Source: Eledone cirrhosa
Lineage: Eukaryota
Length of the DNA stretch: 64,000 nucleotides
Direction: 5' to 3'
NCBI GenBank assembly: GCA_964016885.1
Contig: OZ024742.1
Location: 104,222,001 to 104,286,000 of the forward strand
Shown here: positions 13,758 through 60,017 of the stretch, piece after piece
How positions within the stretch are numbered: the stretch's first letter is position 1
How the letters are laid out: each line of letters starts with the position of its first letter
Notes under the pieces: generated by a model
The model's database searches: none
Seen by the model: the letters and a program-made list of their open reading frames with translations, nothing else
What the model was told of the DNA's origin: nothing
Position numbers and translations under genes: made by a program

Positions 13758-13922
13758 ATATTCATTTTATTAAGGCTAAATAGTGAGTCTTGTTACTCTG
13801 GAGTTTCATCTGTTTATCATAGGGTCATCAGACAAGAACTATTCTAGTCTGATGACCCTATGATAAACAGGTGAAACTCCAGAGTAACAAGACTCACTAT
13901 ATAGCCTTAATAAAATGAATAT
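13758..13922. repeat. Near-perfect palindrome: 81-bp arms (3 mismatches), 3-nt loop
   Basis: 13758-13838 pairs with 13842-13922. Confidence 0.95.
13842..13892 (+). ncRNA. Hammerhead ribozyme-like motif (mirror copy on the - strand at about 13788-13838)
   Basis: CUGAUGA(13849-55)-cccu...aggu-GAAAC-uc-ca-ga-GUA-acaaga. Stem III is acuc/gagu; stem I ucuugu/acaaga is perfect in the - strand copy; the stem II closing pair is mismatched. Confidence 0.55.
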
Positions 13923-15167
13923 TAAAACTTTACTTCAGTATTGAAGACACTTTTCTCTCATCCATCAACCACACACACACACACTTATGTGTGTGTGTGT
14001 GTTATAGATCAGGATTTTACCAGTTTTAAACTAGTAAGGCCATTATTCAGCAGAGTACTCAATACTTGGGATAGTAGACTGTGACAATAGTAGAGAGAGA
14101 CGGGGCCAGACTCTCTCTGGCATATGTGTGTGTGTATGTATGTGTGTATGTATATACTGTACCAATTGTGTTGTAATTTCTGTTTACCTTTTACATACAT
14201 ACATATATATATATACCACAAAACATCCAGCCCACACTGTAAAGTGATCGTATAGGTGTCACGACAAAAAGCACTCACCACACACTGTCAATGTGGTTGG
14301 CATTAGAAAGGGCACCCAGCTGTAGAAAACCAGCCCACACTGTAAAGTGGTTGTGTAAAAGGCATGGCAAAAAGCACCCAGCACACACTGTCAATGTGGT
14401 TGGCATTAGGAAGGGCATCCAGCCATAGAAAACCAGCCAGAAACACTCGTATATGAGTAAGACACAGTCACCTGACCCAACTTGCTTCTAAATAGAACAA
14501 ACCCGTCTAACCCATGCTAGCGTGGAAGATTGATGTTAATCGATGATGATGATGATGATGATGATGATGTTCATCATCATCATCAACGTTGATGATATAT
14601 ATATATATAATTTTTTTTTACATCTGCTTTCCATGCTAACATGGGTTGGATATAAATATAAATATATATATATATATATATATTTACTGATTTGGTGAAA
14701 ATGTGAGATCTATGGAAAATTCCTGCAGTTGTGTTGTAAAATGTCAGGGGGGCAGCAATGATAAATAGCAGCAATTAAACAGTTTTACACCACTACCCAC
14801 CCCAGTTAGTGTGGGGATGGTGGCTCTCTCCTTAAAACATCAATTCCTATGTATATAGATGTATGTATGTTGAAGTGTAAAGCTCTTCTCACACTAGTAT
14901 CGCCTTTAGTAGTTAACAACAAAGGAGCTTTTCTCTTGAGAGAGAGCAGCAGCAAATGAAAAAATTGAAGGTTTAAAACTGTTTCAGTGCCAGCTTCTTT
15001 CTATAACCAGAGCAGGTTGTTTGTGTGTATATGTTAGAATGTATGAGAAGGGTAATACTATCTGTGTGTGTGTGTACCTTAAATATATTTAGTTAGTTAC
15101 ACAGAGTGGTAGATTAATAATGCTTTAGTTGAAACCACTGGCTTCAACAATATTTATATATATATAA

Positions 15168-15357
15168 ATCAGGATAGAACCAGTTTAAAACTAGTTAGAC
15201 CATTACCCAACAGAGTACTTGATACTTAGTGTAGTAGAGTATGGCTATGTTATAAAGAGTCAGGACTTAATGGCTGAGCTCTTGCTGCTTTAACAGCTAG
15301 TTCCGGACTTAGCTATTGAAACTGTAAGTGCTCAGCTGTTGGGTCCCGACTCTTTAC
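15168..15357 (-). mobile_element. Fold-back element with an imperfect hairpin (15253-15356), homologous to 14008-14120 and 44315-44435
   Basis: Shared cagagtact(c/t)(a/g)atactt.g..tagtaga segment; flanked by TA tracts. Confidence 0.6.
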
Positions 15358-16502
15358 ATATATATATATTTAATCATTTAACATCTATTTCTTCATGCTG
15401 GCATGGATATATCATCAGCATCACTTATACACATTTACAAATGGGTGAACTGGGTGTTTCTTATCGTGGCTGCAGCACTACTACCTTACAGGGTGGACTA
15501 GGTGCTTTTTATCGTGGTACCATCACTAACACTTTACAGGGTGGACTGGGTGCTTTTCATCATGGCACCAACATGGTCACTTTATATGGCATACAATTCC
15601 AGTAAACAGACACTTACACTCACAGATGATTTAATATAGACTTCCTTTTAAAAAAAACAGAAAACCTTTTAACATCAATCTTAATTAATCAGTCACAGAC
15701 TGCTGGCTTAATGGAATTAGAATACTTGTTGAATTAAAGAAAAGGCTTGAATCAACTCAAAATTCCAACCAATCTTTGAACCATTTCAAGGAGAGTAAAG
15801 AGCGACATCATTGTTATATGCAACTTAGGTGAAAAGATACAGCAATGATAATGTAGGATTAAATATTACAAACCAGTTTCTCTTCTACATTACATTCTTC
15901 TTCTTTATCTACACTCACACAGTCATCCATCCAAGCTTGATTTTGAGCATTGGTCTCTTATAAGATTCAGCTAAATATTTCTGCCATAATACCTACAACA
16001 GGCATGGCTGTACAGTCCCAGTGTAATATGGAATTGCCATTGGCATTATATCTATATATATATATATATATACATACACATACATATGTATATAGTAAGT
16101 ACAGAAACAATTAGAAACAGCAGTAGAAGTACTATAATGGCGAATTAGGCCTAATATCCTGTGAATATGAATGGTATATTTACTGCTCTACTTCACAAAT
16201 AGACCAGATTTTCAAACAATCATGACAAACATAACTATAACAAGAAATATAAAGTGGCTATATAGTTTAAATGGACTATTTGTAACAAAAACTTGGTCCA
16301 TTATGATTAAAAACTTGTGTAATAGTGGATTAAACAAGCTATTTTTAACAAAACGTTTACCCATTGTAATTGAAAAGTTGTTTATAATGACAACTGAATA
16401 ATAAAATATCTCTATGTAAATAAGAATGAAAATGCAGGTTGAAGACAGGTACAAATATATGTATATAAGCTTATATATGAAAACCTTTCAAAAATAATTT
16501 AA

Positions 16503-57941: not shown

Positions 57942-59501
57942 CACTTGGAGATCTGTGTATTGATACTTCTGTTACAGGACCCTGGTCTGGGATAAGGATT
58001 TGAGGGGATGGAGATGATTCTGGCTGGGGATCACTAACAGGGACCAGCTCTGGTTCTGTGGGTGTTGTTTGGTAAGGGATAGGGGGACTGGGGTAGCTAT
58101 CATCTATGGTGTTGATGGAGTAACTAACATATTGCTGGCTTTCAAGCTGAGGGGGTGGAATAGTAGTAGTGGACAATAAGGGCTCTTCAACAGGATAGTA
58201 TTGGTGTTGTTGCTCTTGTGGAGGAACTATGTGTTCCTCCACCACAGATGTTGTTTGATAGGTGGTGTAAGTAGAAGCTTCTGGTAACTGAGGTGGAGGC
58301 ATAGCTGATACAGGCGGTTGCGAAATAGGTGCAAGCGGTGGAGATTGGGGTGGCGGAGTGTTACTACGACTCGACTGTGTCGTTAGCGGAGCTTCTTTGA
58401 CCACTGTACCTTCAGAGGTTGTAACTACGTTGGTTGTTGTTGATGAACTGGTGTGCTGAGGTCTCTGCTGTGGAGGCCAGTCCCGACTGTTTGAGCGTTG
58501 TCGTTGCATGTAGTCCTTACTGCTTGTGCGAACAGGTGGAGTTATGGGAGGAGTGATAGAGCTTGTTGTCCGGATGGTAGGTCCAGGAGATGGTGGAGGC
58601 TTGCTCACGGTGCGACTATGGGTTTCAGAAACACTGACATCAAACACATCATCGTTAAGGCTTTGCTTTTGGGTACGATGAGTGGTTGTCTGTGGGTTGA
58701 TAGACATCTGGTATACAGTGTAACCGTCAAAAGTGATAGGAGAAGAAGGGCCGTTGACATATGATTGCATCACCTCATGCTCCTCTATATCACTTTTGGC
58801 CCTTTTATTAGCGTACCGTGACTGAGCATGCTTCAGTTCCTCAACAAGAGCCTTCTCTTGATGACTTCTCTTTCCATCATCATCTTCTTTCTTCTGTTTT
58901 AACTTTTGTTGCTGCTGTTCCAGCCAGGACAGTGCTTCAGTGTCCATTTGGGACATGTTTTCACTCGTGTAAGAAGTCGAATAAGTATTTTCATAATCTG
59001 CACGGTAAGGCAACGTATAGTTTTTAGGAGACGGAGCCTGGCCAGTTGTTGGTTCTTTGTCAGGGCTCTTACTAGTCACTGTCTCCCTGGTCACCTTCGT
59101 TTCAACAAAGGGCGGGGCAGTATAAGAGAAAGCATTTTTAGGGACATGCTTCATCTTCTCTTCAGTTGATTTGGTGATGGTGTAGTGGTTCTCTTCTACA
59201 TAAACTGGGGATTTTTTGATTATCTCAGTTGTTTGTGTAACATATGACATTGGTTTCTGGGTCTCTGTGTAGGATGATGTCACAGTGGAAGTTTCACTGA
59301 CTGATGCAGGGGCTGGTTTAGTTGAATCCAATGCCTGATCCTTCAGCAAACCTTCCAAAATGGCATCCAGTTCTCTGTGCTCGTCAAGGGCTTTTGTGGG
59401 TTCTGGTTTTGTAGTGTAACTACTAGTTTCTGTGTGCACTTCAGTACTTGCTTGCTGAACTTGGCTGTCCTTTGGAAGAATAGTTTCATTTACTGTGTAA
59501 C
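57942..59501 (-). CDS. TNS: Tensin-like gene, large Ser/Thr/Pro-rich exon (phase 1-1, 1560 bp)
   Basis: Lies within the 544-aa ORF; acceptor ctatttcag|GT TAC, donor G|gtgagt; frame continues from the previous exon; contains ELDAILEGLL, SWLEQQQQ and PxxP tracts. Confidence 0.85.
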
Positions 59502-59777
59502 CTGAAATAGAAGAGGGAAAAGACAATAGTAAATTGACTAATATAAATCGGTGAGAGGGAAGATGATATATTTAGATCTATATCTACATCACTCTCTCGC
59601 TATATCTATATCTATCTAACTATATATGTGTATATATATATATATATATATATATATTGTTATACTTGGGGAGGGTCATATTTGTGTAATATTGCCAGAA
59701 TTAATATATATAAGGAAATGAGGTTTTTTTTATAAAAAAAAAAAAAGAAAAAGCAGGATGTCCTCCACGGGTGAAAG

Positions 59778-60017
59778 TATAAAGAAAAGAAATTGAAAAT
59801 GCAGCTGGAGTCTTTTTAAGATTATTTATTTCTTTTACCAGTTTCACAGTTCTTATGCTTTTCAAAAGTAAAATTGAGATGGAGGGTTTGCGGTTTGTCT
59901 CGCATCTGTGAGATGCGAGGCAGACATCCCCACCCCATCTCAATACTGTGAAACTGGTAAAAGAAATAAATAATCTTAAAAAGACTCCAGTTGTATTTTC
60001 AATTTCTTTTCCTTATA
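59778..60017. repeat. Inverted repeat (about 73-bp arms) enclosing a nested hairpin
   Basis: 59778-59850 pairs with 59945-60017; inner hairpin attgagatgg...tctcgcatct gtg agatgcgagg...ccatctcaat. Confidence 0.85.

Follow-up and report, generated by a model that had tools for sequence, protein, structure and literature searches.

Hammerhead-bearing fold-back repeats in (TA)n tracts of Eledone cirrhosa match terminal repeats of Hydra- and Neptune-type Penelope-like elements

A 64,000-nt stretch of the Eledone cirrhosa genome (hereafter the window) contains a dispersed group of short elements, mostly fold-backs set in (TA)n tracts, of which a first-pass annotation made from the letters alone had listed ten loci. 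Each was found where it had been placed (Table 1), as were the six inverted duplications among them, five recovered by script and that at 15.2 kb through BLAST. Coordinates were likewise recovered for complete CUGANGA..GAAA..UH hammerhead ribozyme cores at the three loci said to hold them (13.8, 20.9 and 41.7 kb), for the mutated core near 49.4 kb, and for the 14.0-kb copy, which retains only the tail and a tail hairpin. The description of other copies as half cores holds at 15.2 and 44.3 kb, but not at 59.8 kb, where a full variant core with U3 and A8 lies on the minus strand; at 42.5 kb the core is indeed missing from the window copy, through a deletion, whereas its relatives hold a full one. 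Two remnants, of families G and H, were added to the original list. With window DNA from six families as queries, all 40 of 40 scored candidates in the 3.0-Gb genome matched in each family, and first-look candidates, whose counts are not copy numbers, ranged from 1,810 to 4,210 per family. The elements are thus abundant, multi-family, hammerhead-bearing, Penelope-related and (TA)n-targeted, as had been proposed.

Table 1. Fold-backs, solo arms and remnants in the window, with their inverted arms and cores.
Feature	Position	Strand	Inverted arms	Details
Family A fold-back	13758..13985		13758-13838/13842-13922 (81 nt, 96% identity)	Short-end arm - (13758-13838), tail arm + (13842-13985)
Family A type I cores	13794-13831, 13849-13886	-, +		Each misses the strict three-helix descriptor by one helix mismatch
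Degenerate solo arm, family D relative	14005..14125	-		76% over 95 nt; retains just the tail with its hairpin
Family D fold-back	15163..15360		15253-15356 (75%, BLAST)	Tail arm (-) begins at 15309, within loop II of the family hammerhead; GAAA..GUH half only, mutated
Family B fold-back	20603..21030		20691-20840/20878-21027 (150 nt, 99% identity)	Tail arm - (20603-20877), short-end arm + (20878-21027); Hydra-type terminal repeat
Family B cores	20744-20792, 20926-20974	-, +
Family C	41565..41793			Inverted tail piece - (41565-41640) and short-end arm (+), core 41658-41736 (+); no overlap between the arms; Hydra-type terminal repeat
Family G fold-back	42505..42675		42505-42544/42568-42607	Core deleted; tail 42608-42675 (+), 84% identical to the terminal repeat of L215
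n44 solo tail arm	44294..44436	-		Begins at predicted transcription start in loop II; 3' half-ribozyme 44395-44417
Family E fold-back	49270..49483		49359-49415/49427-49483	Core 49337-49416 (-) with G12>A
Collapsed family A fold-back	56807..56912			Core region deleted
Family G remnant	57260..57298	-		84.6% over 39 nt
Family H 3' end	59655..59706	-
Family F fold-back	59709..60017		59778-59850/59945-60017	Tail arm - (59709-59908), core 59836-59865 (-); short-end arm + to 60017; ~74% identical to both terminal repeats of L170

When the window elements were compared with the pseudo-long terminal repeats (pLTRs) of Penelope-like elements (PLEs) from the same genome, as the first-pass annotation had advised, five families could be linked to open reading frames (ORFs) for reverse transcriptase (RT) and a GIY-YIG endonuclease: F, with a Neptune-type parent, and B, C, G and n44 (the family of the 44.3-kb copy, and the most abundant), with Hydra-type parents. 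Searching the genome for GIY-YIG yielded 10,596 candidates, of which 150 were scored as matches. Locus L170 consists of a 938-amino-acid open frame between two pLTRs, both of which match family F. In Pfam its GIY-YIG domain scores above the cut-off and its RVT_1 domain (28 bits) just below; the frame has DKG, a C-x4-C-xx-C linker that fits the Neptune pattern CX2-5CxxC, and GIY-YIG at its C terminus, and the family F parent is, judged by these motifs and by resemblance, Neptune-type. Three further loci (L189, L181 and L175) show the fold-back form and both 3' ends of family F, but one of their arms bears the ORF. For family G, L215 represents the full-length Hydra-type parent; for n44, ORFs are flanked by pLTRs 90-93% identical to the 44.3-kb copy (L353, L355 and L356), and L407-L409 are additional parents. 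About 59 stop-free frames of at least 780 amino acids were counted by eye among 150 scored matches to the n44 protein, and some of the ORF-bearing n44 elements form 3.5-kb tandem arrays. Family B lies 1.3-1.75 kb downstream of one common ORF end in two loci (L357 and L358), and in 9 of 30 family C loci an endonuclease is found about 1 kb upstream on the same strand.

The Hydra-type assignment follows the diagnostic motifs given in section 11 of PMC8557442, reference proteins being compared by eye from the text of that paper. All are present in the 784-amino-acid frame of L407, likewise examined by eye (RWK as RWR, DKT, a CxCX5C linker, CxxC and CxH around E and N, and no CCHH); L215 has the N-terminal motifs and the linker, and the parents of B and C were placed in this clade by the similarity of their C-terminal pieces alone. 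Pfam reported no families for four Hydra-type frames and a sequence search of the PDB gave no matches; a protein homologue search returned 2,214 relatives, the best 54% identical, and added nothing further. Also observed were two more young Hydra-type families (L228-L256 and L257-L262) which match no window element; their open frames of 778-781 amino acids are arranged in tandem, the TATA box lies above the core, and stem II is very long. In relatives of family H, a CUGAUGA core whose stem II has 6 bp lies just downstream of a different PLE-type endonuclease frame (L076, 6120-6610). We conclude with high confidence that the window elements are terminal-repeat fragments, pLTR plus tail, of Hydra- and Neptune-type PLEs; that they form a separate class is not supported.

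Every alignment shows one layout, (TA)n, inverted arm, variable junction, sense arm and (TA)n, and in each family the 3' ends are fixed at two points, some 60-100 nt from each other and both falling on TA-like letters (+111 and +179 relative to the core in F, +66 and +129 in G). Among 98 n44 arms met incidentally, 73 end at exactly +60 or +155. These ends combine in a strict manner: a short end meets a long (tail) end in 138 of 167 head-to-head pairs, 4 pairs have like ends and 25 have an unclassified end, and among n44 and G pairs, whose short copies were never used as queries, the short-plus-long class makes up 48 of 52. An inverted, 5'-truncated arm with a tail at one end only is how PMC8557442 defines PLE insertions, and the hammerhead in the pLTR and the microsatellite target are likewise in keeping with an endonuclease-bearing PLE. 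Two internal priming sites would give one short and one long end per fold-back, and we regard such two-site priming as quite likely. Within the 138 pairs the tail arm reaches farther 5' in 44, the short arm in 55 and neither in 39; family C arms often do not overlap at all, and the left part of the 41.6-kb copy was recognized as an inverted tail through L071. The variation of the junction between copies indicates that the fold-back is made anew at each insertion.

Long inverted arms, TA flanks and a lack of coding capacity might also suggest miniature inverted-repeat transposable elements (MITEs) or other foldback DNA transposons, or else assembly artefacts at microsatellites. However, the ends are asymmetric, the centres vary, and the arms match the pLTRs of elements encoding RT and endonuclease; these ORF links refute such an origin. 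The same joints and (TA)n ends also occur in read-derived contigs from four runs of one study (fold-back joints at 926-927 of L407, (TA)n ends at 986 and 1066), which may come from the source sample and argue against assembly error only. We accordingly give DNA transposons and artefacts together almost no weight. Contig depth rises at the predicted start and falls after the tail; depth is no copy number and was set aside. As a separate observation, fragments of different families are nested in one another's (TA)n flanks (e.g. L054, L079, L130, L179 and L326), so that insertions seem to seed more insertions and estimates of local density are inflated.

The 5' ends of short copies, solo or paired, also coincide within families. 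They fall at -43 to -39 from the core in F and at -7 to -1 in G, one position accounts for 32 of 68 paired arms in A, and 51 of the 98 incidental n44 arms begin within -5 to +6 of the A of TCAGT, with 9 farther upstream and 38 downstream. Copies that share sequence farther upstream occur in A (3 of 16 loci), D (13 of 30) and E (about 10 of 22). The common 5' end falls on a start motif, YCAG(T/A), whose A lies 30 (F), 30 (G), 29 (n44) and 30 and 29 (A) nt below a TATA-like box, the values for A coming from the two of its three extended copies that have such a box. A distance of 29-30 nt below TATA is the usual spacing for RNA polymerase II, and the pile-up of 5' ends at this distance marks a predicted transcription start in F, G, n44 and A. 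That the 5' end of a short copy corresponds to the start of transcription seems fairly probable on this basis. A reading of the CAG at the 5' ends as a splice acceptor was ruled out, since the copies include the (C)AG itself.

Fold-backs might alternatively arise by self-priming, or snap-back, of one template or complementary DNA (cDNA), as proposed for rotifer Penelope elements in PMC3846280, in which case the 5' ends would be fold points or RT pauses. Junction centres in A, G and F are palindromic, and the two arms often have the same non-majority bases (88 shared and 77 differing in n44, 142 and 115 in B). Yet solo arms have these same starting points, immediately preceded by (TA)n, either arm may reach farther 5', and the frequently non-overlapping arms of family C could not be produced by one snap-back; moreover, the start in n44 and D lies in a loop, past the 3' strand of stem II, and the TATA spacing is constant across unrelated families. 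Self-priming therefore appears very unlikely as the source of the fold-backs, and a predicted transcription start remains our preferred account of the 5' ends.

The identity of the ribozymes was assessed within and between families. An Rfam scan of the window, one of the checks that had been suggested, returned no hammerhead up to E=1, only microsatellite-driven miRNA hits and weak tRNA hits. A strict three-helix descriptor matched the window 3 times, while 100 dinucleotide shuffles averaged 0.21 matches (maximum 2). CUGANGA cores in A, B, C, E and G are retained in roughly 87-100% of arms per position, with lower values for G12 where it is part of a CpG (41/52 in A, 24/31 in E), and relatives of the family E copy have an intact core and common upstream sequence. 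In family F the core reads UUGAAAA, with U3 in 69/69 and A8 in 71/72 arms. The core is no better conserved than its flanks within families, as expected when copies of a master decay; the evidence of selection lies across families. Other Neptune-type and Penelope-type families (L140-L167 and L180) carry a core of the U3-A8 type, a variant that is widespread in this genome.

In n44 a full ribozyme is found only in upstream-extended copies, which occur in both subfamilies; UUGANAA is present in 32 of 35 extended arms of the main subfamily, stem I has 5 bp, stem II encloses the TATA box and the start motif, and the minimum-energy fold of L407 has type I topology. Extended copies of family D share this layout, with CUGAUGA in 8 of 13 (from 30 loci). 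A lack of any 5' core in n44 and D could be rejected, as these extended copies carry one. Short copies of both families begin inside loop II, leaving half a ribozyme, and exact 19-mers from the two halves of n44 occur 62,608 times (3' half, one match per 48 kb) and 3,227 times (5' half) genome-wide, with no occurrences of reversed controls. Between n44 and D three pairs change on both sides, namely core pair 3-8 and two in stem II, and 89.9% of cells are paired compared with 18-51% in slid controls. The core and three helices of a type I hammerhead are thus borne out by the family columns and the n44/D covariation; the window copies at 14.0, 15.2, 42.5, 44.3 and 56.8 kb do not contain them. 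Two extended n44-type copies, L372 (C3 with A8) and L275 (U3 with G8), have intermediate cores and may represent steps between core variants.

The tail motif resembling tattga(g)tac that had been reported for several copies is real, and belongs to a hairpin just inside the tail. Examined by eye, an ACUC...GAGU hairpin with differing upper stems is found in A, B, D, E and G and in the 14.0- and 44.3-kb copies, the tail of family E relatives included; predicted folds support it for just B and n44. The PMC8557442 supplement contains one Hydra consensus that ends, again by eye, in the same hairpin with its outer A-U replaced by G-C. This hairpin is a candidate recognition site.

Taken together, these findings suggest that the window elements are pLTR fragments placed in (TA)n by two-site copying of a leader back to its predicted start, a whole that we consider probable. 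A parent element would be transcribed from a TATA/initiator promoter in its own pLTR, and its enzyme would nick both strands of a (TA)n tract. Either strand would then prime synthesis at one internal site of the two, probably with the help of TA microhomology and of the hairpin between the sites, a scheme that in vitro results with a Poseidon element permit (PMC11167929). Two leader cDNAs would then reach, or nearly reach, the 5' end of the RNA and be joined head to head. A single completed priming would leave a solo arm, and priming in the 3' pLTR would yield long, ORF-bearing arms. Most short copies, having no upstream promoter, would be dead on arrival. In n44 and D, a start in loop II would produce a capped mRNA with half a ribozyme, such that cleavage would be confined to RNA reading through the 3' pLTR.

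The annotation had instead taken the short units for a separate non-autonomous set, and they could be self-sufficient retroelements, SINE-like (short interspersed nuclear element) or retrozyme-like, whose own transcripts the enzymes of PLEs copy again. Short n44 arms outnumber extended ones by about 19:1, short arms retain both priming sites and the tail hairpin, four B copies have a common junction, A, D and E have no ORF link, and D, with no TATA at -30, could use an internal promoter like that of Drosophila virilis Penelope (PMC2377424). Junctions nonetheless mostly differ from copy to copy, short copies of F, G, n44 and A begin below their TATA-like box, both n44 subfamilies include upstream-extended copies, and short copies of n44 and D are without half the ribozyme. 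Published retrozymes consist of direct tandem units that each hold a complete hammerhead, and no such units were seen among short copies of the window families, whose arms are solo or head-to-head; direct tandems were seen for ORF-bearing elements only. Given also that five families match the pLTRs of ORF-bearing PLEs, and that ORF-bearing L189, L181 and L175 share the fold-back architecture and both 3' ends, we consider self-sufficient units unlikely and retain leader copying from PLE parents, although some short copies may have been mobilised again.

Several results weigh against this reading. For A, D, E and the 14.0-kb copy no ORF link was found: 22 family E loci gave none, and the sequence upstream of ten extended D and two extended A copies gave none that convinced, the ORF pieces 3 kb upstream at L410 being a single case. 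The window copies of F and G are only ~74% and ~84% identical to the parents found, and direct masters were not seen. Most A, B, C and F pairs come from searches with window fold-backs, which biases the architecture counts. The four B copies that have the window copy's junction point to microhomology or to re-copying of a fold-back. The evidence for the start site consists of spacing and pile-ups: the 38 downstream n44 arms begin well below the motif, extended copies of D have a TCAGT start motif and no TATA at -30, and in B, C and E the 5' ends are broader and the spacing is not clean. In addition, an Anolis element studied in vitro begins copying where there is no homology to the cut DNA and can dispense with its hammerhead (PMC11167929). 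The n44/D covariation amounts to one event between two families, in 10 full rows. Eight ribozyme-sized pieces were folded and none did better than its shuffles (z -1.3 to +1.1), which agrees with PMC4209133, where PLE hammerheads are reported to cleave weakly and to depend on dimers. As monomers, most window copies fail to take up the hammerhead fold.

Comparison with known systems places much of the anatomy in published context: PLE hammerheads, opposite-strand pairs, the U3-A8 core, inverted pLTRs, tails, solo pLTRs, TATA/initiator motifs and Hydra elements in an octopus are already on record. Hydra-clade PLEs, including Hydra-1_Obim (PMC8557442), resemble the parents of B, C, G and n44 in protein motifs, (TA)n targets, a hammerhead in the pLTR, the inverted 5'-truncated arm and the tail, and the end of one non-octopus Hydra consensus in the supplement shows, by eye, a similar stem III as well as the tail hairpin. 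The one octopus Hydra family treated there is described as having "no pLTR" and a different ribozyme sequence, in a clade with canonical hammerheads throughout; in contrast, Eledone has more than one such family, open frames in tandem arrays, a core of the U3-A8 kind and short copies that start inside the ribozyme. The suggestion that the elements might be uncatalogued is thus partly true, one octopus Hydra family being already in that supplement. With Neptune-clade PLEs, the family F parent shares DKG, the C-x4-C-xx-C linker, the C-terminal GIY-YIG and direct pLTRs, and differs in the U3-A8 variant core of its family and the many leader-only copies.

The minimal PLE hammerheads of PMC4209133 likewise have a palindromic short helix III and an additional base following A9; single motifs are dispersed, pairs on opposite strands lie 100-700 bp apart, and Schistosoma has the U3-A8 variant. 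They are there called "probably related to truncated PLEs", and the consulted text maps no ends and notes no split ribozyme. Poseidon of Anolis, examined in vitro (PMC11167929), uses two neighbouring internal RT start sites that delimit the tail, with both strands of an AT-rich target cut and extended; its start site is not homologous to the target, whereas here the ends fall on TA-like letters, the tails span ~60-100 nt and the sites pair one-to-one in fold-backs. In rotifer Penelope (PMC3846280) a TATA box and initiator-like motif in the pLTR, head-to-head inverted pLTRs, a tail on one arm and solo pLTRs are all present, but copies are few; recombination or deletion is invoked there for the solos, and self-priming on an antisense template for the inversions. 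Non-LTR retrozymes of animals (PMC7229834; bioRxiv 10.64898/2026.07.22.740005) are also short and non-coding, with type I hammerheads, and related to PLE pLTRs; they are direct tandem units that yield circles, unlike the Eledone copies, many of which are without half the ribozyme. An octopus repeat annotation (PMC13282606) mentions Penelope families and, in its main text, no ribozymes, and both PMC8557442 and PMC11167929 treat the role of PLE hammerheads and the origin of inverted pLTRs and tails as open questions. A literature search, with subscription journals, Repbase and Dfam outside its reach, returned no leader copies ending at a start site, no short-plus-long rule and no start site inside a hammerhead.

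Around the elements, minus-strand frames at 57895-59571, 62613-63284 and 38119-38748 look like exons of one host gene and resemble tensin in a motif only; Pfam gave no families for these three frames. The positions of these coding pieces suggest that the elements lie in introns. Other short elements with terminal inverted repeats (43787-43980, 55012-55275, 55742-55939 and 6053-6563; arms of 23-56 nt), in which no hammerhead core was seen, are probably MITEs. Also identified were young tRNA-headed SINEs 96-100% alike (10103-10331, 42143-42515 and 45175-45553), whose (GAT)n tails often adjoin Penelope fragments, and fragments of long interspersed nuclear elements at 46950-48620 and 41200-41540, presumably RTE-like and CR1/Jockey-like.

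With regard to PLE biology, a young Hydra-type family with dozens of open frames is available in this genome. Its priming sites are predicted exactly, short and long ends pair strictly, a hairpin is a candidate for recognition, and the ribozyme would be whole in read-through RNA alone. For annotation, the abundant leader copies would probably be mislabelled as SINEs, MITEs or unknown repeats, while Rfam misses these ribozymes and Pfam the Hydra-type proteins. Whether the split ribozyme is functional we judge to be an even question. Somewhat more tentatively, Hydra-type PLEs in this genome may carry their promoter inside the hammerhead, so that a start in loop II would give a capped mRNA with half a ribozyme, and read-through RNA, being whole, would be cut at the 3' pLTR, making the hammerhead a position-dependent processor of 3' ends. 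Two-site leader priming would at the same time have scattered tens to hundreds of thousands of copies that record the start sites of the parents and add hairpins to introns across the genome.

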